NCBI GenBank assembly: GCA_012841305.1
Contig: DUVA01000181.1
Location: forward strand, 1-58,850
Length of the DNA: 58,850 nt
From: Bacillota bacterium
GTDB taxonomy: Bacteria; Bacillota; SHA-98; UBA4971
Direction of reading: 5' to 3'
Shown here in pieces: positions 7,064 to 55,138 of the stretch. Within the stretch, counting starts at the first letter, position 1, and the number at the start of each line of letters is the position of its first letter. The notes beneath the pieces were generated by a model. It searched no databases and had not been told where the DNA came from. It worked only from the letters and a program-made list of their open reading frames with translations. The position numbers and the translations under genes were made by a program.

Positions 7064-8223
7064 TATGCAACACCGCCCCCTCCTGTCTCGTCTCCTGTTG
7101 TTTCGTGATAACCGGGTAGATTACGAGTCTTGCCGGCAACTACATCAACGACGGGAATATGCTTGATTGCCTTGGCTACTGCATCAAGCAGTGTTTCAGC
7201 ATCAAACATCCTGCCGTCAGGTGCAACCGGGCAAGTCGTTATGGCTTGAAGATGTATCTTGTGGAACACTCGAATTCTTCCGCCTCTCGACTTAAAGAGA
7301 GAAAGATCTCGATGGGTGGCAAGAATCCGCGTAGCGTCGCCTACAACTACTGTGGAACCGCGTGCCTTCCTGTTGGCTGCCAAATCCCTCATAAGATTCC
7401 CCGGAAGGGCCCCGCCCAGAATAATTGTGCTGCCCGGTCCGGGCAATTGCCTGATGATTTCAGCTGCGGATACAAGCACGCTTTTGACTTTCAGTTCCTC
7501 AACATGGTTGCCCATGGCGCCTGATGAGATTAGTACTACATCTTGGTTTGTTAAAGATTCCGGGTCGAATCTTTGTCTATGTGGATCTGACCATTGGGGA
7601 CAGGTGAGTATCTCAACTACTTGAGCTGTTCTGGATACTACTCCCTCTAATGTCGGTGCGACAACTGCCCCTGTGGATAGAATAGTAGTGTCAGCCAGGG
7701 ACGGAGCGGACGAGAATCTTCTCCCTGCAGCACCATCAATGACAATTAGCTCTGCTCCAAGGTGGCGCATGAGCTCTGTGACGCTCTTAACTACTGAGGC
7801 CTTGTTGCCGCTGGCAATTTCTATTGCGCCGGGAGAGTTGACTCTATAGATAATGAGCCTTCCCAAGACTGTTACATGTTTGGTCTTTATGAGAGGCTCC
7901 AAAGAAGCAGATGCGCTCATAGCGAGTTTTTCCGCTGTGGCGACAAGTGCCCCTCTTTGCACCTCAATTCTTGGCTTTGGAAGGCGCGTCACAGCATCCA
8001 GCTTCTCTCCGTCACGGCCGGAAGATGCGACTCCTATCCGCATTCCGACAGCGTGAGCCTGTTTGATTATGGCGTTTAGCGCAACGGTTTTCCCTGAATT
8101 CTTCGCAAGGCCTACAACTGCAATGTTATTTGCCCCGGAGAAAACCACCATGTCTATGGGGTTCTTTGTGTCATCGCGGCTTGGCGTGGCCGCGATCTTT
8201 GCGCTGGAGACACTTTGGTTCAA
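7063..8223 (-). CDS. P-loop NTPase embedded in the lysine cluster; possible aminomutase reactivase/chaperone
   Basis: Walker-A-like [12 protein letters not shown] start at 8223 is preceded by GGGGAGG with a 9-nt spacer. It overlaps the kamA 3' end by 53 nt and shares a base with the kamD start. The functional call rests on context only. Confidence 0.45.
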
Positions 8224-9433
8224 TGCTTACAGCCTCCCCACGGAGAAGAGATGACACACCTATGGATGTCTTCTCTTTGCAATCGCAAATTGAGCAATTG
8301 CTGCACCATTCACTCTTGTAGTCGTCAGGCTCAGTGTAGACGCTAATCACGCCTTCATAATTCCTCAACGCGACTTTATTGTGGCTTTGAGAAATCAGAT
8401 ACGTGGGACTGACCGGGATCTTTCCTCCCCCTCCCGGTGCATCCACTACAAAGGTAGGTACTGCCAGGCCTGAAGTGTGCCCTCGCAAATGCTCAATGAT
8501 CTCTATTCCTTTTGACACCGGAGTTCTAAAAGACGCAAGCCCTACAGACAAGTCACACTGATAGATGTAATAAGGCCTTACTCGAGTCTTCAGTAAGCCT
8601 TGGACAAGCTTTTTCATGATATGCGGGCAATCATTGATTCCTCTTAGCAATACTGACTGGTTTCCCAGGGGAATTCCTGCGTCTGCAAGGAGTCCACATG
8701 CATGCCTTGATTCACTCGTAATCTCGTCAGGATGGTTGAAATGAGTGTTTATCCATAGAGGATGGTACTTTTTCAACATAGAGCAGAGGTCAGGTGTTAT
8801 CCTCTGAGGAAGCACCACCGGCGTCCTTGTCCCAATACGGATGATCTCCACATGTTCAATGGACCTAAGCGTGCTTAGAATGTATTCAAGGACATTATCT
8901 TCAAGGATGAGGGGATCTCCGCCTGATACAAGCACATCTCTGACTGTCCTGGTTTGCCGGATATAATCAATTGCCCTGTCTATGTCGTCTCGTGTCACAG
9001 GTTCGTCCTCATGCCCTGCCAGCCTTCGTCTGGTGCAGTGACGGCAGTACATGGAGCAGAAGTTGGTGACCAAAAAGAGGACTCTGTCGGGATATCTATG
9101 CGTGATGTACCGAACAGGCGAATCTTCATCTTCAGCCAGGGGATCCACCATATCATGGGCGGTTGTTATCAGCTCTTTGGCTGTAGGGACCCCTTGTCTC
9201 CTGATAGGGCATTTCGGATCATCAGGAGACATCAAGCTTAAGTAGTATGGTGTGATCGCCATACGAAATCGGGTAAGGCATTGCTCTATACCCTCTTCTT
9301 CATCAGCAGTCAAGTGAAGAGCGTCCTTAAGGGTGCGGACATCTCTTACTCTGTTTTGCACTTGCCAGTGCCAATCGTTCCATTGGCGCTCATCGACTTC
9401 TTTCCAGAGCGGGATCTCTCGGAAGTGCCTCAT
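8171..9433 (-). CDS. kamA: L-lysine 2,3-aminomutase (radical SAM)
   Basis: [12 protein letters not shown] radical-SAM cluster motif, and overall KamA-like sequence ([20 protein letters not shown]). Confidence 0.9.
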
Positions 9434-9457: not shown

Positions 9458-10495
9458 TTACGACACTGCCCACCTCTCGAGGAACATCTTCATGAGTACA
9501 GGGCTTTCTCTTAGCACCGAGAGAGCGATTTCTGCATGGCCTTTGGTGTAACCATTGCCGATAATCATGTTCACATCTTTTCCAATGCCTTCTGCGCCGA
9601 GGGCGCAAGATGTGAAGCTTGTAGCCATACTGAAGAAGTAGACAGTTCCTCCGTCCCTTGTAGCCATTATTGAAGCCATTTCAGTTCCGGGGATATTCAC
9701 ACAGTTGATGGTCACATCAGCTAAACGTCCTGAAGTCAGCTGACTCACTTTGTCATAGACTTCAAGGGGCTTTGTAGCATCCAGGGAGAAGGCATTATCT
9801 GCAAGGCCTGATTGAACTATGCGATCATGGCTTACCTGACTGTGCCCCATCCCCAGGACTTTGCCTGTGACTCCCGCTCTTTTCTTAGCTTCATAAAGAC
9901 ACAGAAGCCCTGACTTCCCACCTGCCCCGATAATCAGCACAGTGTCACCGGGTTTTACAAGTCTTGCGGTTTGCGCAGGCGCTCCTGCTACATCAAGCAC
10001 CGCAAGGGCAAGAGCAGGAGGCATGTCAGAGGGCAGCTTAGCGTAAATCCCGCTTTCAAACAGGATCGCTTGCCCTTTGATTCTTACTTGATCTTGGTCC
10101 TGGCGGATTTCAAGGATCTCCTGAATTACCAGGGGAGTGAGGGTGAGCGATACCAAGCTCGCTATTCTGTCACCTGGTTTTATGCTGATATCAGAAATAT
10201 CAGGCCCGATTGCTTTGACTGTGCCTATGAACATCCCTCCGGAGCCTGTTACAGGGTTATGATGTTTACCTCGCGAACCTACGATGTCTTTCATGATCCT
10301 TGCGATTTCTTCGTTATCGCCGTTGGCTTGTTTCTTGATTTGGGTGAAACTTGCAGCATCAATATTCAGAGTGTCGACATCTACAAGGATCTCATTGTCA
10401 TAAAGGTCCATTGTGTTATCAATGCGCCATGCAGCCTGAGGTAACGCACCTCTTGGCTCCAAAACCCTATGAGTTCCGTACTTGCATCCTTTCAT
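9458..10495 (-). CDS. kdd: L-erythro-3,5-diaminohexanoate dehydrogenase
   Basis: MKGCKYGTHRV...LNIDAASF...HNPVTGSGGMFIG is Kdd-like. GGGAGGG RBS lies 7 nt before the ATG at 10495. It is the first gene of the operon. Confidence 0.85.
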   Translation of the reverse strand: MKGCKYGTHRVLEPRGALPQAAWRIDNTMDLYDNEILVDVDTLNIDAASFTQIKKQANGDNEEIARIMKDIVGSRGKHHNPVTGSGGMFIGTVKAIGPDISDISIKPGDRIASLVSLTLTPLVIQEILEIRQDQDQVRIKGQAILFESGIYAKLPSDMPPALALAVLDVAGAPAQTARLVKPGDTVLIIGAGGKSGLLCLYEAKKRAGVTGKVLGMGHSQVSHDRIVQSGLADNAFSLDATKPLEVYDKVSQLTSGRLADVTINCVNIPGTEMASIMATRDGGTVYFFSMATSFTSCALGAEGIGKDVNMIIGNGYTKGHAEIALSVLRESPVLMKMFLERWAVS

Positions 10496-10537
10496 ACTAA
10501 ACCCTCCCACCCGTTAAGAGCCTTACTCATAATCTAA

Positions 10538-10553
10538 TGCAAGTTCTATGCCA
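10538..10553 (-). promoter_or_regulatory. Sigma-54 (-24/-12) promoter of the lysine-fermentation operon
   Basis: The minus strand reads TGGCATAGAACTTGCA, which fits TGGCAC-N5-TTGCW with correct GG/GC spacing. The -12 element lies about 45 nt upstream of the kdd ATG. Confidence 0.65.
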
Positions 10554-10699
10554 TCATAATATCAGTCTGTGTCAAGCCGAGGCTGTGGTAACACCTGCCC
10601 TCACGCTAGTGTAATGCGGTAATACGTGGAATTTGGAAGCCGCCGAAAGGCTGGGAAACGATGCCGAAAGTTAGGCTGCTGCTTAAGGTTGGGCACCTT

Positions 10700-12097
10700 C
10701 TAATCAGTTGCCGGGAAGCCCCATGAATAATGCTTATCTTTGACTTCCCCGAGGTAAACAGGGGTTACCGCCTGGCGGAGTTCGCTTCTGCAGAACTCCG
10801 CGCGATTCAGTCCTACTTGAATGTGTTCATTGCAGGTTACGTATTTCCAGACAAGGCCTGTACGGTAGTTTTCTATCATGAGCAGGATTAGTCCTGCCGA
10901 GATTCCATGATAAGTCTCAGACCACCACTTCCCGTCTGCTGTGAAGCCTGAAGTAAAGCCGTATTTCCCCCATATACGGCTACCGTGTCTTTTGAGCATC
11001 TCTCTTGTAGCTTGCATAGAATCGTAAGGAGAAAACGGAATACACCCTATGGGCGCATGAGGGGCAAATACTCCGTGGTAGCAGTCGGCTGACGCCCCGT
11101 AGACTTGATATCCCTTAGGGCCTTCGCATAGGCTAAGTCCCCAAAGATCCCTGGTATGGGTCTTAAACTCACAAGATCTGAGCATAGAGTAGATACGGTT
11201 ATATCTTGTGGCTGACACCGTGTTATTCCAGTAGTTGGCGTAATAATCTTCTTTCGCTTTCACGTCTAGCCATAAATGGGGCAAGATGTAGGATGTGAGG
11301 CTTTCTTGAGGCACAAATATGTAGTTTCCCCGCACAGGCCTTCGAATTCTATGCCATGTTGATGCAGGCACGGGGTACGTAGGAGAACCCATTGCAAGGA
11401 TATACATTAGCATACTCTCATCGAAGGAGTCCCAACGCGCATCTTCAAAACCTGACTCAGGAGTCCAATTCCTGGCCAGTGTTTCACCGTGGTTCATCAT
11501 CCATTGCCAATTCACAGCTGAGTAAATCTCATATGCAAGGTCTTGGACCGCGGTTTGTGAGAAGAATTCTCCTGCGAACAATGCGCCTGCTATCAGAATA
11601 CATGTGTCCATTGAGGATACCTTGCTCTCTTGAAATCTGATACCTTCATTTATGTCAAGGAGCTGATAGAAGAACCCATTCGTTCGCTGAATTCTGTCTG
11701 AACTGAGCGTGCTCAAGGTGGTAGCGATTCTGTCATACCCTTCTTCCCTGCCTATCCATCCTCGCCTAATCCCTACAGGTATGGCAGACAGTCCTAGGCC
11801 TACCGCTGCTATGCTGCAAGGTGAATCCTCCGCGCTAGAGTGCGGGATGAGGCCGTTATGCGGGTTTGCTTCGTGCCAGAAATAATCAAAGGATTTCTTG
11901 GAGATTATAGAAAGCAGCTCCTCGTCATCCATGAGCAGAAGTCGGGACGCAAGGTTGTCTCTGCTGAGGGTGGTGTCTTCAAGGCCTGCCACGACTGAAG
12001 TAGTAACGGAAGTTAGGATAATAACTATGGAGGCAAGTATTACAGACCTATGAAGAAGCCAGGAAAAATAGCGTACACTTGCCGGATGCATTTCCAT
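10700..12097 (-). CDS. Membrane-anchored six-hairpin glycosidase-like protein (putative glucoamylase/GH144, PF10091-like)
   Basis: N-terminal TM segment, then FDYFWHEANPHNGLIP...MDTCILIAGALFAGEFF...GKYGFTSGF, reminiscent of endo-beta-1,2-glucanase-type (alpha/alpha)6 proteins. Assigned from memory of the family. Confidence 0.55.
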   Translation of the reverse strand: MEMHPASVRYFSWLLHRSVILASIVIILTSVTTSVVAGLEDTTLSRDNLASRLLLMDDEELLSIISKKSFDYFWHEANPHNGLIPHSSAEDSPCSIAAVGLGLSAIPVGIRRGWIGREEGYDRIATTLSTLSSDRIQRTNGFFYQLLDINEGIRFQESKVSSMDTCILIAGALFAGEFFSQTAVQDLAYEIYSAVNWQWMMNHGETLARNWTPESGFEDARWDSFDESMLMYILAMGSPTYPVPASTWHRIRRPVRGNYIFVPQESLTSYILPHLWLDVKAKEDYYANYWNNTVSATRYNRIYSMLRSCEFKTHTRDLWGLSLCEGPKGYQVYGASADCYHGVFAPHAPIGCIPFSPYDSMQATREMLKRHGSRIWGKYGFTSGFTADGKWWSETYHGISAGLILLMIENYRTGLVWKYVTCNEHIQVGLNRAEFCRSELRQAVTPVYLGEVKDKHYSWGFPATD

Positions 12098-25976: not shown

Positions 25977-26234
25977 ATGCTGGTCCGTGTTTCAGACCTA
26001 AGGGCCCGTGAAGTCGTAAATGTTGTAGACGGACGGAGGTTGGGGCCTATCTGTGACATGGAGATAGATCTTACTACAGGTCAGGTGACATCGATTATGG
26101 TGCCAGGCCCCTCCAAGTTCATGGGGATTCTCGGCCGCTACAATGATTACGTGATTCCTTGGTCAAGGATCAAGAGAATCGGAATGGACGTTATTCTCGT
26201 TGAGGCGAATGAGTACGCTGAGCCTGCCCAGTGA
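25977..26234 (+). CDS. ylmC: YlmC/YmxH-family sporulation protein (PRC barrel)
   Basis: VSDLRAREVVNVVDGRRLG...DMEIDLTTGQV..IMVPG...IPWSRIKRIGMDVILV. Confidence 0.85.
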   Translation: MLVRVSDLRAREVVNVVDGRRLGPICDMEIDLTTGQVTSIMVPGPSKFMGILGRYNDYVIPWSRIKRIGMDVILVEANEYAEPAQ

Positions 26235-27600
26235 CATATTCTCGTTCCCAAGCCGTCTCTGCCAACTCGCCATAGTCATTCGCGTATTTGTCAAGGTCAT
26301 CGGCAAGAACGGTAATGACTGATTCAGCGTTTTCATGGGTAGGTCTTGCTCCATGCCTGCACACGACATCTCTCAGTATATGAGGGTTATCCACTATCAT
26401 GCACGGCCTTAGGTGGTTGTCGTTAAGAGGCATCTTCGCTTTGATATCCATGAAGTACGGGGATGTCAAAGCCTGCTTAAGCGTTGTGTTTTTTATGTTA
26501 TCCACTGCAAAGTGAACAAATACGCACGGTTCAATATCTCCGTGGGCGTTAATATGCAGGTAACTTCTGCCTCCTGCCATGCAACCTGATACCATTGGAC
26601 CGTCATTCCAGAAATCAATGACAAAAATGGGCTTTGTTTTCCTGAGATTGATTACGTGTCTTCTCATGGTATCTCGCTGGGCAGGAGTGCACATGAGGTT
26701 TATGTCATCATCTTTTCCTACCGGGATTAACATGAAGAACCAACCGTACATAGCGCCCTTGTCAATCAGCATGTCAATGAAGGCTTCATCAGTAAGGGCT
26801 TCTGTATTAGCTCTTGTGTACGTTGCTGAAAATCCGAACACTGCACCTGCTGCCCTTAAGTTGTCCATTGCTTTCATGACTGTTTTGAAGGTTCCGGGCC
26901 CGCGTCTTGCGTCAGTTTCCGCTTCCATTCCTTCCAAGCTGATTGCAGGCGAGATGTTTCCCAGTTCCGCGAGGCGCCGGGCCAAGTGTTCATCTATGAG
27001 AGTACCGTTGGTATATACCATGAAGACTGCGTCATCATGTTTCTCTGCAATACTGAGTAGGTCCTCCCTAAGAAACGGCTCACCTCCTGAAATCACAAAG
27101 AAGTAAATGCCAAGCTCTTTCCCTTCAGAAATGATTCTGTCCAGGGTGGCTTCGTCAATTTCCCCTTCCTTCGAATAACGCCCTGCGTAGCATCCTGTGC
27201 AGTCTAGGTTGCACCGCATTGTCGGGCTTATCACGATCAATGACGGCACCGGTGTTCCCAGTTCCTCAGCACGCAGCTTTCGCTCCTGTTGACCCATGTA
27301 TGCTTCATTGATGAAGAGATTGACCAGCCCTCGTGTTCGATAACTTTCGTGAAGCTGAGAGAATCCTCGTTCTGCCAGTTTAGTCCATATATGATTTGGA
27401 TCTTCAAATGCTTTTCTTGCCATTTGAATCTGCTGTTTCTCGTTTGGCCCACCTGCAAACAACTCCAGAATTCTGGTTAAGGTCACCAAATTTCGTTGGG
27501 GATCTTTGGCCAGAAGAGACAGAGCATAGTCTATGGCTTGTGAAGCTACATACTTTTTCATAAGGTCGTACGTATTCAACTTAGGTCCCCCCTCTCTCAA
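26191..27600 (-). CDS. Radical SAM protein with C-terminal SPASM/auxiliary-cluster-like region, function unknown
   Basis: RCNLDCTGCYAG CxxxCxxC motif, GGEPFL, and later cysteines (GCMAGG...PCVFVHF). About 110-aa N-terminal helical extension. The start is uncertain (TTG at 27579 is plausible). Confidence 0.7.
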   Translation of the reverse strand: MREGGPKLNTYDLMKKYVASQAIDYALSLLAKDPQRNLVTLTRILELFAGGPNEKQQIQMARKAFEDPNHIWTKLAERGFSQLHESYRTRGLVNLFINEAYMGQQERKLRAEELGTPVPSLIVISPTMRCNLDCTGCYAGRYSKEGEIDEATLDRIISEGKELGIYFFVISGGEPFLREDLLSIAEKHDDAVFMVYTNGTLIDEHLARRLAELGNISPAISLEGMEAETDARRGPGTFKTVMKAMDNLRAAGAVFGFSATYTRANTEALTDEAFIDMLIDKGAMYGWFFMLIPVGKDDDINLMCTPAQRDTMRRHVINLRKTKPIFVIDFWNDGPMVSGCMAGGRSYLHINAHGDIEPCVFVHFAVDNIKNTTLKQALTSPYFMDIKAKMPLNDNHLRPCMIVDNPHILRDVVCRHGARPTHENAESVITVLADDLDKYANDYGELAETAWEREYVTGQAQRTHSPQRE

Positions 27601-48049: not shown

Positions 48050-48088
48050 ATCCAAAAAGGGACGGGCCAGAAGCAAGACTCGTCCCTT
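48050..48088 (-). terminator. Rho-independent terminator ending the three-gene envelope operon
   Basis: Minus strand reads GGGACG-16 nt loop-CGTCCC followed by TTTTTGG, 26 nt after the stop at 48114. Confidence 0.7.
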
Positions 48089-48113: not shown

Positions 48114-49973
48114 TCAGCCGACTACTTCGTCGTCTACCCGGAACAGCCAGATTTCGCTATGACCGTTCATGTGTGATATGACAGCTATTTGACCCCTGAT
48201 CGACCAGGTGAATTCAGCTATCCCAGGTGCGCTTATTATCTGTTTTAATCTACCGCCACCCGAAGGGCATACTGCAAGACCTGCGGGGTTTGTCATTAGC
48301 CATTGGCCGCAAGGCGAGATTTCCAGCAAATCTCCGGCTTTCTCAGCCAGAATTCGGTGCAAGCCGTTTGATCTGTCAAAGCAATAGACAGTCTTGTTCA
48401 TTATGTAGTAGATGGACATTCCATCAGGTGATGCCTGTATTGCGCTGATGGCGCCCGGTAGTTGGAACAGTTCATTTGTGGTGCTGCCCTCTGACAATAC
48501 CAGGACACTGGAGGTTTTGTTGCCCGCGGATTGCGTTTCCAGTAATGCAAAGAATTCATAAGATCTGGAAGGACATCTGAGAGCAAGCAGAGTTCCACTC
48601 TTGACGGAGTAGAGTGTCTCATGTGAACCTGACCTTGGATCAAAGACGCCTATTTTGTATCCTCCGCTACCTCGAGCGACGTACCTAAGCACAGCGTTGT
48701 CAGGGCGCCATTCAATCTCAGAAACGGTCCATCCAGAGCCTGCGCTTTCAGCCTTCTCTTTCTTGTCGTCGGCTCTGAATAAGATTTTCCCTTTACTGAG
48801 GTATGCGAAGCTGCTCGCGTTTTTCCCCGGTTCCGGACGTTCATCCGATGGAACGTCTGTAACCTCACTGATATCGCCTGTCATTGCATCAAGCACCTTA
48901 AGCCCTTTTCCTGCCGAGACAAAGAATACTTCGCTTCCGTCAGCTGCCCATGCCGGATTCTTCGAGCCTTTGGCGCCTGCATTGAATCTTGCTATTTCTG
49001 TAAGTGGAACACCGTTATCCACAGGGGCCAACGGAGGCCTTACAGGACAAGCGATAGCCGGTAGGTAGCATGTGGGTTGGTCTCCACATGTTCTGCTGCA
49101 GGTTGCCGCGGAACCGCATGTAGGCACGCAGGTGTAATAACCTTTACAGGTGGCGCTACATGTTGACATGCCCTGGCTGCATGTGGCTGCGCACGTAGGC
49201 GTAGGACTGCATGTTGTTCCGGTTGTAGCGTGTTCAATGTCGCACCCTGATTCACACGTGGGTTGACTCCCGCATGTCTCAGCGCAAGTTGCGCCACACG
49301 TCGCGCCACAAGTTGCACTACACGTTTCCGCGCAAGTGGGGCCGGTTCCACATGTCGCGCTACATGTCGCTGTACAAGTAGGGTTAGTTCCGCACGTCGC
49401 TGCACAAGTAGGATTGGTTCCACAGGTGGCTGCGCATGTGGGGTTAGTTCCGCAAGTCGCACCGCATGTGACTACGCACGTAGGCTTTATCCCGCAGGTT
49501 ACAGCGCATGTAGACCCGCACGTCAGCCCGCAAGTGGGTTTAGTTCCGCAAGTCGCTGAGCATGTGTCTGCGCAAGTAACTTTAGTTCCGCATGTTGCAG
49601 CGCATGTAACGAGACATGTAGATGAGCATGTAGACCCGCACGTCAGCCCGCAAGTAGGTTTAGTGCCGCATGTCACGAGACAGGTGGGCGCAGTAGTAGG
49701 AGCAGGGCATATCCCGGATGTAGCCATAGGTTCTACCTGGTCGTTTTTCTCCCCTGACGAGTCGCTCTCCGGAGTCTCATATTCACTTGATTCGATACGC
49801 CAATACGGATTCTGAAGACGCTTATCCGCGAGTTCCGCCGAGTAAGCGAAAAGAGGTGAATCCATGACTTCCTCGGTAGCCTTCACCTTTGCGGCGGAAG
49901 TCCAAAACCCTACTACAAGCATGCATGAAAGCACTAGTACTACAGTCAAGAACCTTACTCTTTGTCTATTCAT
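48114..49973 (-). CDS. Secreted/anchored protein: signal-anchor, acidic linker, ~220-aa Thr-Cys ladder (about 45 Cys), Pro-rich hinge, TolB-like beta-propeller
   Basis: The ATG at 49973 lies 8 nt after AAGGAGGG, inside the end of the upstream gene (TGAAATG junction). N-terminus is MNRQRVRFLTVVLVLSCMLVVGF. The repeats are TCGTKPTCGLTCGSTC... The C-terminal part has propeller-like blades (ADGSEVFFVS, SPDGMSIYYI, SPCGQWLM). Confidence 0.8.
   Translation of the reverse strand: MNRQRVRFLTVVLVLSCMLVVGFWTSAAKVKATEEVMDSPLFAYSAELADKRLQNPYWRIESSEYETPESDSSGEKNDQVEPMATSGICPAPTTAPTCLVTCGTKPTCGLTCGSTCSSTCLVTCAATCGTKVTCADTCSATCGTKPTCGLTCGSTCAVTCGIKPTCVVTCGATCGTNPTCAATCGTNPTCAATCGTNPTCTATCSATCGTGPTCAETCSATCGATCGATCAETCGSQPTCESGCDIEHATTGTTCSPTPTCAATCSQGMSTCSATCKGYYTCVPTCGSAATCSRTCGDQPTCYLPAIACPVRPPLAPVDNGVPLTEIARFNAGAKGSKNPAWAADGSEVFFVSAGKGLKVLDAMTGDISEVTDVPSDERPEPGKNASSFAYLSKGKILFRADDKKEKAESAGSGWTVSEIEWRPDNAVLRYVARGSGGYKIGVFDPRSGSHETLYSVKSGTLLALRCPSRSYEFFALLETQSAGNKTSSVLVLSEGSTTNELFQLPGAISAIQASPDGMSIYYIMNKTVYCFDRSNGLHRILAEKAGDLLEISPCGQWLMTNPAGLAVCPSGGGRLKQIISAPGIAEFTWSIRGQIAVISHMNGHSEIWLFRVDDEVVG
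49047..49709 (-). repeat. In-frame tandem repeats encoding the Thr-Cys ladder (12-, 30- and 120-nt periodicities)
   Basis: For example, CGTNPTCAAT occurs three times (about 49380-49470), and a near-identical ~47-nt block occurs at about 49507-49553 and 49627-49675. Confidence 0.8.
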
Positions 49974-49974
49974 T

Positions 49975-52545
49975 TCATTTTCCCTCCTTTCCTTTTTCAA
50001 TCAGCCGAAACTCTAAGTCGTAGATGGACTTAAGGGTCGAGTCAGGTATCGTGGAAGTCGTTCCCATGAGTTCATCAGAGAAAAGTCTTGACGCTGCAAA
50101 TACAAAGACCTTACCTCGTCCGATTTGTTTTTCTGCAGCCACCGTCCTTTCCAGGCTATCACCCACTTGCAGATTACCGCCGGCTACTTGGTAAGTGAGG
50201 ACATGTCGCTGGATTGGTTCTCCGTCAAGGCTGATGACAGATGCGATTTTGGGTTCTTTGACGGAAAGTCCGAAATTCCGCAAGAATTCATTGGCCAATC
50301 TGTCCGAGGATCCGTTTCCATGCATAACTAACAGGTATCCACCGGATTCCACGTATTGCCTTATCATATGATATTCACGATTTGAGAAACGTTTAGCAAT
50401 ATTCATAAGCACGACGACGTCGCATTCCAGCGCCTCACGAAGAGATGCAACCCTGGGGCGGCCTTCTACCCGCTGAATCCAGGTATAGAATGTATGGTAG
50501 GCTTTGGATGAATCAAGGAATATTGTCTCCTCCGGCAGCAACATCAAGGTATGATCTCGTTCAAAAGCTACTTCCAGAGTATCGCTGCGAATCTTGGGGG
50601 GATGCCGATAAGCGGCAGAGGTGAGGCTCTGACAGGACCATATGGCCAGATAGATACCTATGAGCGCTGCAAAGGCCATAGAAGGAGCAAGTGGTGCGAA
50701 AGCACGGCCTCTTCTGCGTATAAGCAGGAAGAGCCCGCATAGCAGGACAGCCGCAGCACCTAGAAGAACTGCCGGTAACCAGGTCAGGTATGCATTGCGA
50801 TTGAGCCAACTGATCATGCCTATGAGGAGTTCCCATTTGCCCGGGATAAACATGAAGAAGTTGGACCACACTGTGCTGTCAGTGAATGCTACTACCCTTC
50901 CCTTTCCTGATGAAGCTGCAGCAGCCTGAATCAAGAGTCCATATTCCTTATCCAGATCCGGCCTGTCAGTGGCGAAGAAGTTCTCATGACTATAGTCAAG
51001 ATATAGACTCTTCACTCCATAACCTGTGATTACGCCGGAGGCAAAGGGTGATATCCCCATTGAGCAGGAAGTCGCAAATAGAAATCTCGGAAGAAGTATT
51101 GCCGCAGGGTGACGGAATATGCTACGGTCTTCGTATATTGAGAGGCCTCCGGTTCTGAGATCGTATGTGCCGTCATACTTAAAGCGTAATCCAAATCTCT
51201 CTGCAACAGGATTTAAGTACGTACTGGTTCCAAAGACATTTGTATGATCACCTACTAGGAAAAGCCCTCCGCCTTTCTTGACAAATTCGCAAATAGCGTC
51301 GATTTCTTCTTCGTTATATGCCTCAGTGGGTGTTTTCAACATCAAGATGTCACAAGTCCCGAGGAGTTCACGGGAGATCGGTGAGTCAAGGTTTTTTGCG
51401 ACGTCATAGTAATCTCGAAGATATGCTGCAAGGGAATAGTAATTGTATCCGGAATCTTCTCCGTACCATAGAGTATCGTATGGCCTGGTAGTCTTCTCCC
51501 AGATAGTGTGCTTTTCATCTATGAGGATTCTGCCCCGTTTCTTGATTCCCGGATCTCGAAATCCAAAGGCAAACACCAAAAGAAATGTGATTACACAGGC
51601 AAGAGCTTGAGGAGCCCACTGTTGGGATTGATGTTTGCCTATTTTGGCAGCTCCTTCATGCCGTTTCTTCTTTGGCGAATCTTGTGTGGTTCTTATTGGA
51701 TCTGCGGTATCTTGCGTATTATAGGTATGTGCAAATCCTTTCCAGGCCGGCATTAGGGCGAGAGGCAAGAAGCTTCCTAATACCCATGCAGGCAACCAGA
51801 ATATGTCATAGTCCCGGTATGAGACGGTAACAAGCAGAAGAAACACGTATCGTGCCAGGAAGAATGCAGCCAGAATGCTGAGGACTTCCCCGGTTTCCCG
51901 CATTATATTGATTAGGTTTCTGTTATGTTTCTTTCTTAGGATGACCTTCATGGTGATCCATCCGGCAAATACCATAATCATGAGGAGCAGGTTCAGTTTC
52001 TCCGACGTGGTGGCTAAAGTGAACTCATATCCCGGTGTGCGAATGAAAACACCATTTGCGCAAGGAGCCGCAGTTACTGAAAATATTCGAAGAAGCCAAC
52101 AGATGACCGGGTCTAAGACTTCTATGTGGTGATGACGGGACTCAAAGGCGACGAAAGACGGAAGCACGAGGGCTTGCACAGTCATGACAATTCCTGCAGT
52201 GGCAAAGCCTGCGGCAATCCTACGTAGACGATTTGCAAGAAGAGTCAAGACCAGGCCGCATGCAATGAGACAAAGGCCCAGATTTTCAGGGAACGGAATG
52301 TGCGTCGAGATAAGCACCAGCGGGACAGCGCATAGGACGTACTGCTTGAGTATGGTCCCCGAGGTATCCGCGCCTCTCGAAGAAGGGGATGAGACGCAAA
52401 ACAATACCAGCCCCATGAGCAAGGTTAACGTTCCAAGGCCACGTGAGGGGCTGTAATATGGTAGAAGCAATACCCAACTGAGTGAAAGGCTGACTATGCC
52501 TACCCATAAACCTATGGCGCTCCGTTTCCCTATCTCAATATCCAT
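49975..52545 (-). CDS. 856-aa polytopic membrane protein with two GldG/DUF4350-like extracytoplasmic alpha/beta domains (paralogue 2)
   Basis: About 10 TM segments, then domain (KKGGGLFLVGDHTNVFG...GKGRVVAFTDSTVWSN), 2 TM, then a second domain (ESGGYLLVMHGNG...GRGKVFVFAASRLFSD). Confidence 0.75.
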   Translation of the reverse strand: MDIEIGKRSAIGLWVGIVSLSLSWVLLLPYYSPSRGLGTLTLLMGLVLFCVSSPSSRGADTSGTILKQYVLCAVPLVLISTHIPFPENLGLCLIACGLVLTLLANRLRRIAAGFATAGIVMTVQALVLPSFVAFESRHHHIEVLDPVICWLLRIFSVTAAPCANGVFIRTPGYEFTLATTSEKLNLLLMIMVFAGWITMKVILRKKHNRNLINIMRETGEVLSILAAFFLARYVFLLLVTVSYRDYDIFWLPAWVLGSFLPLALMPAWKGFAHTYNTQDTADPIRTTQDSPKKKRHEGAAKIGKHQSQQWAPQALACVITFLLVFAFGFRDPGIKKRGRILIDEKHTIWEKTTRPYDTLWYGEDSGYNYYSLAAYLRDYYDVAKNLDSPISRELLGTCDILMLKTPTEAYNEEEIDAICEFVKKGGGLFLVGDHTNVFGTSTYLNPVAERFGLRFKYDGTYDLRTGGLSIYEDRSIFRHPAAILLPRFLFATSCSMGISPFASGVITGYGVKSLYLDYSHENFFATDRPDLDKEYGLLIQAAAASSGKGRVVAFTDSTVWSNFFMFIPGKWELLIGMISWLNRNAYLTWLPAVLLGAAAVLLCGLFLLIRRRGRAFAPLAPSMAFAALIGIYLAIWSCQSLTSAAYRHPPKIRSDTLEVAFERDHTLMLLPEETIFLDSSKAYHTFYTWIQRVEGRPRVASLREALECDVVVLMNIAKRFSNREYHMIRQYVESGGYLLVMHGNGSSDRLANEFLRNFGLSVKEPKIASVISLDGEPIQRHVLTYQVAGGNLQVGDSLERTVAAEKQIGRGKVFVFAASRLFSDELMGTTSTIPDSTLKSIYDLEFRLIEKGKEGK

Positions 52546-52572
52546 TGTCCCTCTTCCTCTGTGGATTCTCCG

Positions 52573-54948
52573 TTAAAATGCTATGCTTCTTAAGAACTCG
52601 ATGTTAGCGAGGTTGACTTCTGACAGAGTCTCAAGATTCATGTTTTCCAGGAACATAGAGTCGCCTACCACCGTGACCCTGCCCTGCCCTACTTGCCTGC
52701 AGACCGCGACAGGCCTTCCCCACGCTGAGACTAATGTAATTGCATTCTGACGGGAAGTTGATACAGGCCAGCCTTCACGAAATTTTAAGACACCCCAGGT
52801 TGTCTCTGCGTGAAATCCCCCAAGAGGCACAGGTTCCACCCTAAATCCAAATCTCTCTGCAAGGTTCCTTGTTCCTCGGCTCTCCTCCCAGCCTGTGGCG
52901 ATTACAAGTCTGCCTCCGTCTTCTGCATACTTCTCAAGAAAGTCTATTTCCTTGCTGCTGTATGATTGTTGAGCCCCGATAATGAACACGGTCTCAGCCC
53001 GATACAACACTTCTTCATCAAACTGTTCCATTTGAACAGGAAGAAGCTGGTTTCTTAAGATATTTTGATATAATCCGCCTATGCCTCGCACCCCCCATAG
53101 TTCAGAAGAGAAGGACGGCGAGTGTGACCGGTCTACTACAGCAGTTGCGCCTTGAAATCTCACCTTCTTTGGGGCACAGAACGAGACAGGTATTTCAAGC
53201 AGGATGAATCCGGCTATCGCCGCTGCTATGAGGCTACATAAGATGGTTATTCCCAGCGCAGTCCGGCGAGGCGCCGCCTTGCTTGTGGCTCGCCAGGCCA
53301 GAATGGCAGAGGCTGTAATACAGGCCACAAAGGCGAAGTGAGGCAGCCATCCGGAAGGTGATGCTCTCCTCTGCGAAAGCCAGGAAAATACATTATCAAG
53401 AAAATCGTGGGATAAGGCTAGCGCTCCATTTTGAAAAGGAGATGTATCACCGAAGACCAGGACTTTTCCGCGCCCGAATGACCCTTCAGCTACAACAACT
53501 AGATCCCCCAGACGCTCACCGGGACTGTATTTCAGATCTCCTAAGTATCCTGAATTGCAGTTCATGAGATCTGCTGCGTCAGCAAATCCACAAGTTGCGA
53601 CAACTACAGGCTTACCCGGTAACTTTACCCTGAGCGATGCACCGGTTCCGATTTGAGTCTGGCTTTCATCTATAATGTTCGTGGTGATTGGGTGTCTGCT
53701 GAACATTAGATTGCCTCTACCCCACCCCTCCTCCAAAATACTCCGGGCAGAGTCGAAGCTCACGCCGATGCCTGCAGGCACCATAACACAGTCAAACGGG
53801 TGAGATTCGTCGGGATAGAACGTATGATCCGCGAGGACAAGCAGAGACCCTCCGTGATAGACAAAGTCTTCCAAGGTTTTCTGTTGATCTTCGTTCAAGT
53901 TATCTCTGACATTAATTCCGACAACTATCTGCACACCGGATAAGTCCTGGGATGAGATCTCGCCCCAGGATACATCATACCCTGTTCCCTCAAGATATAC
54001 AGGAAGCCATCCAAATGAAGGCCTGAACTTGTCATTGAAATCATGAGGCGAGGTAGGCTCAAAGTCTACGTCCGGAGCAGCTAGGAACATTACTGACTTA
54101 TGAATCTGTCCCACTGCCATGGGAAGTGCGCCTACGACACACAGCAGTAGAGCGATAACTACGCCTGCAAGTCCTTTCACTCGGAACGCCGGGTTCCAAA
54201 CCAGGTAATAGCTGTTAGAGGAAGCATAGAAGCCTACCAAGACGGAGAAGCAAACAGCCAGGCATAGTACAAAGGGAACATAGCCCAGTCCGTCCAAGCC
54301 CAGGGTCTTGGCGAATATGAGTAAACAGGTAAGGTAAGAAGCCGTGCCTATAAGGAAATAAGTGACTAACATGCCTGGATTGCGCTGATGGCTTAGGGTA
54401 AAAATCACTAGACATACGAGGGTATAGAGCAACATCAGATCAAGGCTAAGATAGGTAGGCCCGTACACCCCAGGCCTTCCCGATAACACCGTAACTATCC
54501 TTGAGATAAATCTGTTGAGTCCCAGTATTTCAGCGTACTGAATGGAAAGGGCGTCCAGAGAGAGGGCCATAGCAGATCCAGTTACGGCTATGGCAAACCA
54601 CAAGACAGGGTACGCCTTTTCATCCCTTGCTGCTATGGACAGGACGAGAGGAATTGTCATGACGAACATAGTCACGTATAGTTTCCCGGTGTAGCTGAGT
54701 CTCTTGGCAGAAAGAAGGAGGAGCGCTGCTAAGATGCAAGTAAGGAAAGGGATTTTGGTTTTGTTGAAGGGAGTCTTCCTCACTAATATGTACATGCACA
54801 GCAAGAACCAGAGGGCTTCCAAGGCATGAGAAAACATGGTTATTCTACATGCAATTACCGACGTGGCAAGGAAGGTACAAAGAGAGCCCCATTCGATGCG
54901 GAATTGCCGCATCACAGGGCTTTCACTTTTTTGAGGAAGCAACGCCAT
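52573..54948 (-). CDS. 791-aa polytopic membrane protein with two GldG/DUF4350-like extracytoplasmic alpha/beta domains (paralogue 1)
   Basis: About 9 TM segments, then domain (YHGGSLLVLADHTFYP...GRGKVLVFGDTSPFQN), 2 TM, then a second domain (EDGGRLVIATGWEE...GQGRVTVVGDSMFLEN). Confidence 0.75.
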   Translation of the reverse strand: MALLPQKSESPVMRQFRIEWGSLCTFLATSVIACRITMFSHALEALWFLLCMYILVRKTPFNKTKIPFLTCILAALLLLSAKRLSYTGKLYVTMFVMTIPLVLSIAARDEKAYPVLWFAIAVTGSAMALSLDALSIQYAEILGLNRFISRIVTVLSGRPGVYGPTYLSLDLMLLYTLVCLVIFTLSHQRNPGMLVTYFLIGTASYLTCLLIFAKTLGLDGLGYVPFVLCLAVCFSVLVGFYASSNSYYLVWNPAFRVKGLAGVVIALLLCVVGALPMAVGQIHKSVMFLAAPDVDFEPTSPHDFNDKFRPSFGWLPVYLEGTGYDVSWGEISSQDLSGVQIVVGINVRDNLNEDQQKTLEDFVYHGGSLLVLADHTFYPDESHPFDCVMVPAGIGVSFDSARSILEEGWGRGNLMFSRHPITTNIIDESQTQIGTGASLRVKLPGKPVVVATCGFADAADLMNCNSGYLGDLKYSPGERLGDLVVVAEGSFGRGKVLVFGDTSPFQNGALALSHDFLDNVFSWLSQRRASPSGWLPHFAFVACITASAILAWRATSKAAPRRTALGITILCSLIAAAIAGFILLEIPVSFCAPKKVRFQGATAVVDRSHSPSFSSELWGVRGIGGLYQNILRNQLLPVQMEQFDEEVLYRAETVFIIGAQQSYSSKEIDFLEKYAEDGGRLVIATGWEESRGTRNLAERFGFRVEPVPLGGFHAETTWGVLKFREGWPVSTSRQNAITLVSAWGRPVAVCRQVGQGRVTVVGDSMFLENMNLETLSEVNLANIEFLRSIAF

Positions 54949-55043
54949 AGACCGAAGCTTTCCTTCTTTCTGGCTTAGGTCGATTAGTCAAGAATATAAG
55001 ACAATGGTGATAGAGGGCGGAAAGAACGGTATTCGGTACTGCA

Positions 55044-55072
55044 ATCATACTACCCGTGAATTGTCCTGTAAA
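55044..55072 (-). promoter_or_regulatory. Sigma-A-type promoter of the three-gene envelope operon
   Basis: Minus strand reads TTTACA-17 nt-TATGAT, about 95 nt upstream of the ATG at 54948. Confidence 0.6.
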
Positions 55073-55108
55073 TAGCATAAATAGAGAATTAACTGATAAG
55101 TCACAAGC

Positions 55109-55138
55109 ATGGCCCCGGCATCAATTTGCCGGGGCCAT
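55109..55138 (-). terminator. Strong hairpin downstream of the GNAT gene (terminator-like, poor U-tract)
   Basis: ATGGCCCCGGC-8 nt-GCCGGGGCCAT, an 11-bp perfect stem. Confidence 0.45.

Follow-up and report, generated by a model that had tools for sequence, protein, structure and literature searches.

A candidate envelope cassette of two paired GIFT-domain membrane proteins and SPLF-motif client proteins in Bacteria and Archaea

A three-gene operon on the minus strand of a Bacillota contig (GenBank DUVA01000181.1; the whole stretch of 58,850 nucleotides [nt] that was analysed is called the window below) encodes two large membrane proteins, A and B, and a predicted secreted protein, C, all three of which were annotated as hypothetical in this uncultured lineage from anaerobic digesters. 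An earlier reading made from the letters of the DNA (the sequence-only reading) had singled out the trio as a self-contained envelope unit with no described counterpart and had supposed that the membrane pair handles C. Comparative analysis supported both ideas: proteins that share with C a short N-terminal motif, SPLF, were linked to A/B across loci in Bacteria and Archaea, and no system in NCBIfam, PADLOC, Pfam or the searched literature fitted the trio. We consider it very probable that A, B and these SPLF proteins, termed clients, constitute a real and conserved three-component system. Our favoured but tentative reading, to which we give a probability of about 40%, is that an A/B heterodimer would recognise the SPLF helix and dock or organise envelope clients. 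The three genes (open reading frames [ORFs]) are as follows.

52573-54948, minus strand: gene A, ORF of 791 amino acids (aa); membrane protein, A-type subunit
49975-52545, minus strand: gene B, ORF of 856 aa; paralogue of A, B-type subunit and best-conserved component
48114-49973, minus strand: gene C, ORF of 619 aa counted from ATG; predicted secreted client

Results

SPLF proteins are linked to the A/B pair

A HMMER search with B among 1.84 billion sequence clusters returned 683 clusters (50% identity) at E <= 1e-30 and 2,133 at E <= 1e-3, and full-length homologues, at 30 to 40% identity, were annotated solely as hypothetical, DUF4350 or GldG family. When one genome per species was scanned with two peptide patterns from the first GIFT domain of B (GIFT-1), 220 genomes were found; the locus counts given here rest on 80 of them (species level), every one a metagenome-assembled genome (MAG). 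A was located immediately upstream of B in 64/80 loci, with a median overlap of 4 nt, and the two genes were usually coupled in translation; B was too close to a contig edge for A to be judged in 10/80 loci and was solo or separated in 5. A solo B with room upstream and no A-type partner was found in L017, L021, L044 and L082 (LCP-89, Nitrospirota, Zhuqueibacter and Zixibacteria). Gene order varied (C-A-B, A-B-C or divergent), and adjacency was retained across two domains of life. In Methanothrix (L091, 5976-12637 of a 3.04-Mb contig; L087; L092), the client gene was divergent from A-B.

The association of clients with the pair was found from either starting gene. When the search was started from B, the ORF adjoining A/B (3' of B or 5' of A) repeatedly encoded a signal peptide followed by SPLF, and when it was started from C, all distant matches with enough flanking sequence adjoined A/B (L003/L004, L006, L087, L088, and L091). 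A close homologue of C, P0002, was situated at a contig end, so that its upstream side was not visible; the cassette was likewise present in L089, the locus of P0015, which was found from B. Several loci had two to four client paralogues beside one A/B pair (up to 3 or 4 in L035, L039, L044, L060, and L069).

The motif spans about 17 residues with the consensus S-P-L-F-x-x-[S/R]-[L/T]-x-x-[S/A/T]-[I/L/V]-x-x-[L/M]-[E/D]-G, in which S was present in 96%, P in 94%, L in 78% and F in 87% of cases, and it followed the hydrophobic core of the signal peptide at a median distance of 17 residues (interquartile range, 14 to 19). It was common to bacterial and archaeal clients, the remainder of which was unrelated between lineages, and we read it as a probable N-capped amphipathic helix. 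A 26-residue hidden Markov model (HMM) of the motif matched 63/5,067 ORFs in 54 loci; iterating the HMM alone gained nothing, and the variants SPAF, SSAF, STAF, SPFF and APVF were added by hand from all-vs-all clusters. An SPLF protein was present in 47/80 genome loci and within 1 kb of the A/B pair in 43/80; in loci with at least 1.5 kb on both flanks, the count was 29/39 (74%). Five additional loci had a Cys-rich partial ORF beside A at a contig edge.

All-vs-all clustering of the neighbourhood ORFs yielded no conserved component other than the clients, and no peptidase co-occurred with the cassette. In a motif scan, radical-SAM-like ORFs were found in three loci only, were KamA-like and were adjacent in none. 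The window itself contains radical-SAM-like ORFs at 8171-9433 and 26191-27600 (minus strand; CSMYCRHC, KamA-like, and CNLDCTGC), more than 20 kb from the trio and judged unrelated to it. In 12 Thermoplasmatota loci (e.g., L037, 9374-10429), the client gene was followed by a gene for a conserved secreted protein of about 351 aa, which may be a lineage-specific fourth component or mere local synteny.

Distribution and co-inheritance of the cassette

Recurrence of the trio beyond this genome, for which the sequence-only reading had proposed a neighbourhood search, was evident across both domains: the cassette was found in about 20 bacterial phyla, in Thermoplasmatota and in Methanothrix. The bacterial hosts included Bacillota, Desulfobacterota, Nitrospirota, Planctomycetota (anammox), Verrucomicrobiota, Lentisphaerota, Bacteroidota, Ignavibacteriota, KSB1, Zixibacteria, Latescibacterota, Eisenbacteria, Krumholzibacteriota, Chloroflexota, Acidobacteriota, Actinomycetota (Coriobacteriia), Thermotogota and Patescibacteria. 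Among Archaea, the species scan yielded Thermoplasmatota; the cassette is also widespread in Methanothrix.

The motif subtype of the client tracked the lineage of A/B and not the host. In a Thermotogae MAG (L079, 6655-12592), B was nearest to the B of Thermoplasmatota (37 to 40% identity) and the client carried 'TPLFAVRT', the archaeal subtype, and an Anammoxibacter MAG (L019) was grouped with Thermodesulfobacteriota by both B and client type. The cassette is thus horizontally mobile and evolves as a unit, and in the case of L079 it appears to have crossed domains as one.

A and B are distant paralogues with two GIFT domains each

The paralogy of A and B perceived in the sequence-only reading was confirmed by a colinear alignment (21% identity over 491 aa, E = 9e-11), which made them distant paralogues. 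Each consists of a polytopic N-terminal membrane domain and two GIFT domains split by a transmembrane hairpin.

54079-54948, minus strand: A, N-terminal membrane domain, aa 1-290, about 8 hydrophobic segments (hydropathy)
53344-54078, minus strand: A, first GIFT domain, aa ~291-535, with conserved GG-x-LL-x2-GDHT, FD, GAS and GDTS-x2-QN
53173-53343, minus strand: A, transmembrane hairpin, aa ~536-592 (hydropathy; colinear with the B hairpin)
52576-53172, minus strand: A, second GIFT domain, aa ~593-791 (DUF4350 match at residues 630-774)
51562-52545, minus strand: B, N-terminal membrane domain, aa 1-328, about 9-10 helices (AlphaFold2 model)
50782-51561, minus strand: B, first GIFT domain, aa ~329-588, with IDE-x-HS-x-WE, SGYNYY, GDHTNVFG and DST-x2-SNF (aa 330-585 in the model)
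50608-50781, minus strand: B, transmembrane hairpin, aa ~589-646 (model helix 590-645; segments 591-609 and 617-635)
49978-50607, minus strand: B, second GIFT domain, aa ~647-856 (Pfam, profile and Foldseek matches; aa 657-830 in the model)

None of the three products had been credited with a recognisable signature, which held for ABC ATPases, peptidases and sortases, none of which was matched, but not for the GIFT-type domains of A and B. Both proteins scored above the Pfam gathering cut-offs of DUF4350 (PF14258; A, 56.9 bits; B, 47.1 bits; cut-off, 30.4) and IFT52_GIFT (PF23355; A, 30.8 bits; B, 51.9 bits; cut-off, 27.2); for ABC_transp_aux (PF09822; gathering score, 34.7 bits), B was above the threshold (56.8 bits) and A below it (31.3 bits).

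An AlphaFold2 model of B was obtained from 29 homologues, with a predicted local distance difference test score (pLDDT) of 86 and a predicted template modelling score (pTM) of 0.87; the membrane domain modelled alone reached a pLDDT of 83 and a pTM of 0.80. The structure search recommended in the sequence-only reading was run on the B model, and in the PDB Foldseek matched the GIFT domains only, to the N-terminal domain of IFT52 (5fmr and 5fms; E = 2e-7 to 9e-7; TM[target], 0.70 to 0.76), OST48 (chain 8b6l_N; E = 3e-6) and, in the glycosidase families GH42 and GH164, 'trimerisation' domains that resemble class I glutamine amidotransferases (GATase1). A sequence profile of B likewise matched IFT52 among PDB entries (E = 3e-9). 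The membrane-domain model had no match in the PDB (best E = 0.26, TM < 0.2), and exosortase, GT-C, WaaL, ABC-2 and rhomboid-like folds were rejected for it, as none was among the PDB matches. When a GT-C or O-antigen-ligase identity was considered, no GT-C or WaaL entry was listed and no conserved acidic residue was present in the membrane domain. The isolated membrane domains of A and B had no Pfam match at E <= 10. In the model, the membrane domain of B contains a small three-stranded sheet (aa 158-177) and a disordered basic loop (aa 274-306), after which one further transmembrane helix follows, and the hairpin carries RRRGR between its two hydrophobic segments. By the positive-inside rule, both GIFT domains would be extracytoplasmic.

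Residue conservation was scored over 57 A and 76 B sequences. B GIFT-1 was the most conserved part of the cassette, with E344, W349, E350, Y367, N368, K404, G432, H434-G439, N445, R550, D556-S557-T558, S561, F563 and N582 invariant; D433, in the GDHTNVFG motif, was 94% conserved, and K570 and E572 were invariant as well in the 29-homologue alignment. A retained counterparts of these motifs (GDHT and GDTS-x2-QN), and its second GIFT domain was conserved at D606, H609, N629, R632, D763, N771, E773 and N782. The membrane domain of B retained W14, H139, R232, W250 and P261, and that of A was weakly conserved within the A family. Eisenbacteria-type B proteins (L041, L052, L054, L064, and L076) have at aa ~125-145, after a conserved SR(Y/V)H, the SPLF-like stretch 'EIPxL(S/T)PLFY', which may be a coincidence or a pseudo-substrate.

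Client passengers differ between lineages

C had been described as a Thr-Cys-ladder/beta-propeller exoprotein, and the following features were assigned to it.

49878-49973, minus strand: Sec-type signal peptide, aa 1-32 (MNRQRVRFLTVVLVLSCMLVVGFWTSAAKVKA), with a single hydrophobic segment at aa 6-24; probable cleavage site at its end
49800-49877, minus strand: SPLF region, aa 33-58 (TEEVMD-SPLF-AYSAELADKRLQNPYW; motif HMM, E = 1.4e-6)
49047-49712, minus strand: Thr-Cys ladder, aa 88-309, of TCxx / TCGTxP units (sequence)
48117-48971, minus strand: C-terminal PD40/TolB-like beta-propeller, aa ~335-619 (weak match)

An acidic linker separates the SPLF region from the ladder. The ladder was as described: Thr precedes 42 of its 45 Cys, the Cys are spaced by 4 residues in 27 cases and by 6 residues in 13, and its DNA consisted of imperfect tandem repeats of 12, 24, 30 and 96 nt. 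The propeller was matched weakly in the window protein (PD40 [PF07676], 14.3 bits, E = 0.04, against a gathering score of 20.9; TolB chains in the PDB, E = 0.01), and the orthologues in L007 and L008 exceeded the PD40 threshold (34.2 and 36.5 bits). The conserved element of C lies in neither of these parts but is the N-terminal SPLF motif, which the sequence-only reading had not noticed; ladder and propeller are lineage-specific passengers.

Homologues of C with the whole architecture outside its own species cluster numbered two only (93% and 76% identity), and more distant matches shared just the Cxxx-type Cys repeat and the N-terminal SPLF segment. Ladder length was hypervariable. The same 90%-identity cluster contained C proteins of 579, 619, 657 and 667 aa; the client of the relative with a 79%-identical B was 817 aa long with a ladder of about 400 aa, and P0003 (76% identity to C) was 443 aa long with a ladder of about 40 aa.

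Ladders of TCxx/TCxxxx units were found in clients of Bacillota, Bacteroidota, KSB1 and others, and 'ETMDPxDxxC' repeats, with up to 119 Cys in 1,448 aa, in those of Desulfobacterota and an anammox MAG. Many Gram-negative lineages had a passenger made up of Cys-rich repeats only. The clients of Thermoplasmatota were either about 220 aa long, with 2-3 Cys and a C-terminal transmembrane segment, or about 110-145 aa long, with a small C-terminal Cys cluster. C-terminal modules comprised CWB2 wall-binding repeats (other Bacillota), the PD40 propeller, a type IX secretion C-terminal domain and GEVED, which points to a surface destination of the clients. A 752-aa client with 92 Cys (L051, 13607-15865) ended in FlgD_ig and a type IX secretion C-terminal sorting domain, and another (L074, 3773-6856) contained a GEVED domain; clients of these kinds imply that at least some are destined for the diderm outer surface.

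A lipoprotein reading, based on the lipobox-like 'VLSC' in the window and 'LLSC' in L089, was rejected, since L007, L008, P0003 and all archaeal clients had no lipobox. The Thr-Cys ladder yields long His/Val-rich antisense shadow ORFs (49263-49815, plus strand, in the window; 10490-11689, minus strand, in L089), and the public gene call for L089 took an antisense ORF of about 397 aa and, of the true client of 817 aa, only a tail of 351 aa. Fragments of about 302 aa in the C cluster, covering the propeller only, were labelled 'dipeptidyl aminopeptidase/acylaminoacyl peptidase' by one source, which looks like over-annotation from PD40 similarity.

Operon layout and genomic setting in the window

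The three co-directional genes were arranged as first described, with 27 nt between the A stop and the B start and a TGAAATG junction formed by the stop of B (TGA, 49977-49975) and the start of C (ATG, 49973-49971). An in-frame TTG at 50000 is a longer start option for C in the ORF listing; the ATG at 49973 was taken as the start because a AAGGAGGG box (49989-49982), the ribosome-binding site noted at this junction, is located 8 nt ahead of it. The signals around the operon are as follows.

55044-55072, minus strand: sigma-A-type promoter-like site TTTACA-17-TATGAT, 10/12 consensus matches
54949-55043, minus strand: 5' leader (about 90 nt), in which a GAAGGAAAG ribosome-binding site precedes the A ATG (sequence)
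48054-48086, minus strand: intrinsic terminator, GGGACG...CGUCCC hairpin followed by UUUUU (folding)

The sigma-A promoter claimed for the operon was present and was the top promoter-like site in the 217-nt intergenic region upstream of A, but such sites were not enriched in this region (7 observed versus 10.3 expected in shuffled sequence), so that it is the position of TTTACA-17-TATGAT that argues for it. The leader and the terminator were both found as claimed. The latter comprises a hairpin (48086-48059) and a T run (48058-54), with a folding energy of -21.6 kcal/mol (z = -2.5); its internal bulge made a consensus terminator scan miss it. A separate GC-rich hairpin, GGCCCCGGCA...UGCCGGGGCC (55105-55135, minus strand), terminates the GNAT gene, and the promoter-like site follows immediately downstream; this hairpin gives the trio a promoter region of its own, with no read-through from spoVS-GNAT. 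No riboswitch or other Rfam family was matched in the A leader at E <= 1 or in the window, and no tRNAs were found in the window.

The flanking genes were those named before: YmdB, SpoVS and GNAT border the trio at one end, and the dcw genes, beginning with mraZ (MraZ, RsmH, FtsL and a penicillin-binding protein), at the other. That the trio is an accessory insertion into this conserved backbone, as had been proposed, is plausible, since the cassette occupies another genomic location in Bacillota relatives at 52% identity, but unproven, since the GC content of the trio equals that of its flanks and the relative with a 79%-identical B shares this gene order (RecX, RNase Y, an unannotated gene, YmdB, SpoVS, GNAT, A, B, C, and MraZ). 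Recent horizontal transfer, judged by composition, was rejected, as there was no GC deviation.

Discussion

In the docking reading that we favour, A and B would form a heterodimeric platform in the membrane, and the near-invariant polar patch of B GIFT-1, aided by A, would bind the SPLF helix, which would be the membrane-proximal N-terminus of the client after Sec export. The client would be docked and organised on the external side of this membrane, with its variable passenger projecting outward; in the window, the length-variable Thr-Cys ladder would serve as a stalk or spacer and the PD40 propeller as a head. This reading is supported by the conservation of B GIFT-1, which matches that of the near-invariant SPLF motif, and by the pairing of A with B, the reciprocal linkage, the several clients per pair, the co-inheritance of the client subtype, the fixed placing of a motif common to two domains of life and the surface or wall modules in which clients end. 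It is further supported by the match of the GIFT domains to the structures of the IFT52 N-terminal domain and OST48, which we take to be scaffolds rather than catalysts. A stalk role of the ladder is suggested by its difference in length between near-identical relatives; spacer regions of surface proteins typically vary in this way between close relatives.

Several points weigh against docking. About a quarter of the well-flanked loci had no client nearby, and the predicted structures cover B alone. The polar set of B GIFT-1 (E344, E350, D433, H434, T435, N436, D556, S557, T558, K570, and E572) looks more like a catalytic or a metal/ligand site than a simple peptide groove and, by secondary-structure order, these residues may occupy the active-site positions of a GATase1 fold (nucleophile elbow, His/Glu). 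The type IX client of L051 implies release across the outer membrane, which fits poorly with permanent docking at the inner membrane and favours a transient over a permanent interaction. Docking alone also leaves the large membrane domains, with their conserved fold, unexplained.

The main rival to docking is that A/B are a maturation enzyme for which SPLF is the recognition or cleavage signal: a catalytic B GIFT-1 would cut at or close to SPLF and transfer the client or polymerise it, which would make it an N-terminal analogue of sortase or exosortase, or would modify the Thr/Cys repeats outside the cell. The invariant polar constellation of B GIFT-1 and the DHT and D(S/T)(S/T) motifs common to A and B suit an enzyme, as do the fixed distance of SPLF from the membrane, which is found in membrane-associated processing systems, the several clients that can accompany one pair and the type IX client, which must leave the inner membrane; moreover, GATase1-fold hydrolases with non-Cys nucleophiles exist (peptidase family S51). 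We nevertheless hold an enzyme to be possible rather than probable, given that no peptidase, transferase or sortase family was matched in Pfam or NCBIfam, that no conserved gene for an energy source or a donor substrate was found nearby, that the Thermoplasmatota clients have no Thr/Cys repeats to modify and that, to our knowledge, no enzymatic role is known for the GIFT-domain proteins GldG, OST48 and IFT52. The sortase/LPXTG, exosortase/PEP-CTERM, archaeosortase/PGF-CTERM, rhombosortase and myxosortase systems resemble the cassette in combining a short motif on unrelated envelope proteins with a dedicated polytopic partner, in letting one partner serve several clients and in occurring in both Bacteria and Archaea. 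They differ in that their signal is C-terminal and tripartite, whereas SPLF is N-terminal and helical, and A/B had no sortase, EpsH/exosortase, rhomboid or CPBP match in Pfam or NCBIfam (membrane domains, E <= 10); the likeness is one of logic only, and cleavage at SPLF is hypothetical. We regard as doubtful the furthest-reaching proposal, by which SPLF would be the first N-terminal sorting signal common to Bacteria and Archaea and A/B a new GIFT-based sorting or maturation machine, built on a membrane fold unseen in solved structures, that would recognise and cleave or covalently process SPLF and assemble Cys-rich proteins into an envelope structure, as the N-terminal counterpart of sortase, exosortase and archaeosortase.

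It is very unlikely, in our judgement, that A/B are GldG-type auxiliaries of an ABC or other transporter encoded elsewhere, with the Cys-rich neighbour as cargo or as a co-regulated protein. The PF09822 matches ('ABC-type uncharacterized transport system'), a weak match of TIGR03521 and database names such as 'GldG family' or 'motility-associated ABC transporter substrate-binding' lead in that direction, and GldG (of GldA/GldF/GldG; TIGR03521, PF09822) does share with A/B an extracytoplasmic GIFT-type domain anchored in the cytoplasmic membrane. However, B scored 20 bits over 72 residues against a TIGR03521 cut-off of 389.85 and A had no match; an ABC ATPase-like ORF was present in just 4/87 loci, adjacent in none, and in the 58.8-kb window there was none; and the A/B loci had neither an ABC ATPase/ABC-2 permease (gldA/gldF-like) partner nor any conserved permease or ATPase family. 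A characterised system of the kind that the sequence-only reading had named as its own alternative, GldG with an ABC partner, was accordingly not what the loci contained. GldG is bitopic around a single periplasmic region, whereas B has about 9-10 N-terminal helices, a GIFT domain, a hairpin and a second GIFT domain, and the roughly 300-aa polytopic domain of unmatched fold, the obligate pairing of paralogues and the dedicated SPLF clients set A/B further apart; a transporter would leave the strict pairing and the clients unexplained. We also find it unlikely that the Cys-rich repeats are extracellular binders of metals, metal sulfides or polysulfide, with A/B as membrane receptor or transfer partner. 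The 45 to 119 Cys per client, the Met/Asp/Cys-rich 'ETMDPxDxxC' repeats of Desulfobacterota and the restriction of hosts to anaerobic lineages, including Methanothrix and digester Bacillota, would accord with this, but the ~220-aa Thermoplasmatota clients, with their 2-3 Cys, still keep SPLF and A/B, the conserved membrane-domain residues (W, H, R, W, and P) are atypical for metal transport, and no conserved metal-related gene was found nearby. Least credible of all, to the point of being nearly negligible, is that C is a chance neighbour and SPLF an artefact of signal-peptide composition: the motif is short and promoter-like sites are not enriched, but the numbers of HMM matches (63/5,067 ORFs) and of clients close to A/B (43/80), the reciprocity of the linkage and the adjacency kept across two domains despite varying gene order all stand against it.

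Other families share single features with the cassette. The GIFT domains of eukaryotic IFT52 and OST48/Wbp1 have the fold of both A/B-type ectodomains and an assumed scaffold role, but differ in cellular context and partners, and the prokaryotic GIFT-1 has a strongly conserved polar patch. Cxxx-repeat radical-SAM targets (TIGR04117; PF27846, tSAM_targ_Cxxx_rpt) have Cxxx-periodic Cys repeats, and Methanothrix clients are recorded as PF27846. The window ladder had no NCBIfam match at E <= 10, distant clients scored 10-17 bits against the TIGR04117 cut-off of 50, and the precomputed record for the window C listed no PF27846. The link to a radical SAM maturase that these families suggest was rejected, as no radical SAM gene was linked, Methanothrix loci included; the conserved element of the clients is SPLF and not the repeat. 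The Tenebrio antifreeze protein is made of disulfide-stapled Thr/Cys beta-helical repeats, and Gram-positive stalks are also repeat-built; short-period Thr-Cys repeats in strain-variable number are a likeness to both that we offer as a lead. Makarova et al. (2015, PMC5898192) predicted that the archaeal DUF4350 proteins of arCOG01314 form part of a secretion or membrane-remodelling complex; these proteins share the DUF4350/GldG-like ectodomain but are bitopic, and they are discussed there alongside arCOG02884, a partner family unlike those of the A/B/SPLF cassette. The HXS defence system (PMC13128918), with a repeat-bearing periplasmic effector and dedicated maturases, is a loose analogy only, and A, B and C had no match among the PADLOC anti-phage models at E <= 0.01.

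Scans of A, B, C, the membrane domains and nine diverse clients against Pfam, NCBIfam and PADLOC returned GIFT-type and passenger domains (CWB2, PD40, type IX secretion C-terminal, and GEVED) only. Neither NCBIfam release 20 (June 2026) nor Pfam had a dedicated model for A, B, the membrane domain or SPLF, and the literature searched (on DUF4350, GldG/GIFT, Cxxx repeats, N-terminal sorting, and Cys-rich surface proteins of Methanothrix) contained no description of the cassette. We regard the cassette as new, in that it joins one known domain type with a membrane fold that had no PDB match and with a signature motif not described before. The recovered genomes were MAGs only, with no isolate among them, which fits with the cassette having escaped description.

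If linkage reflects function, the cassette is an undescribed envelope system that extends across about 20 bacterial phyla, Thermoplasmatota and Methanothrix. With the SPLF HMM and the A/B profiles, hundreds of proteins now called 'hypothetical', 'GldG family' or 'ABC-type uncharacterized transport system' could be annotated, and faulty gene calls over repeat regions would be corrected. The analysis also suggests that prokaryotic relatives of the IFT52/OST48 GIFT domains are receptors for a defined peptide motif. In strict anaerobes such as the digester methanogen Methanothrix and its bacterial partners, a structural, metal-binding or redox role of Cys-rich, length-variable repeat proteins could matter for aggregation and syntrophy.

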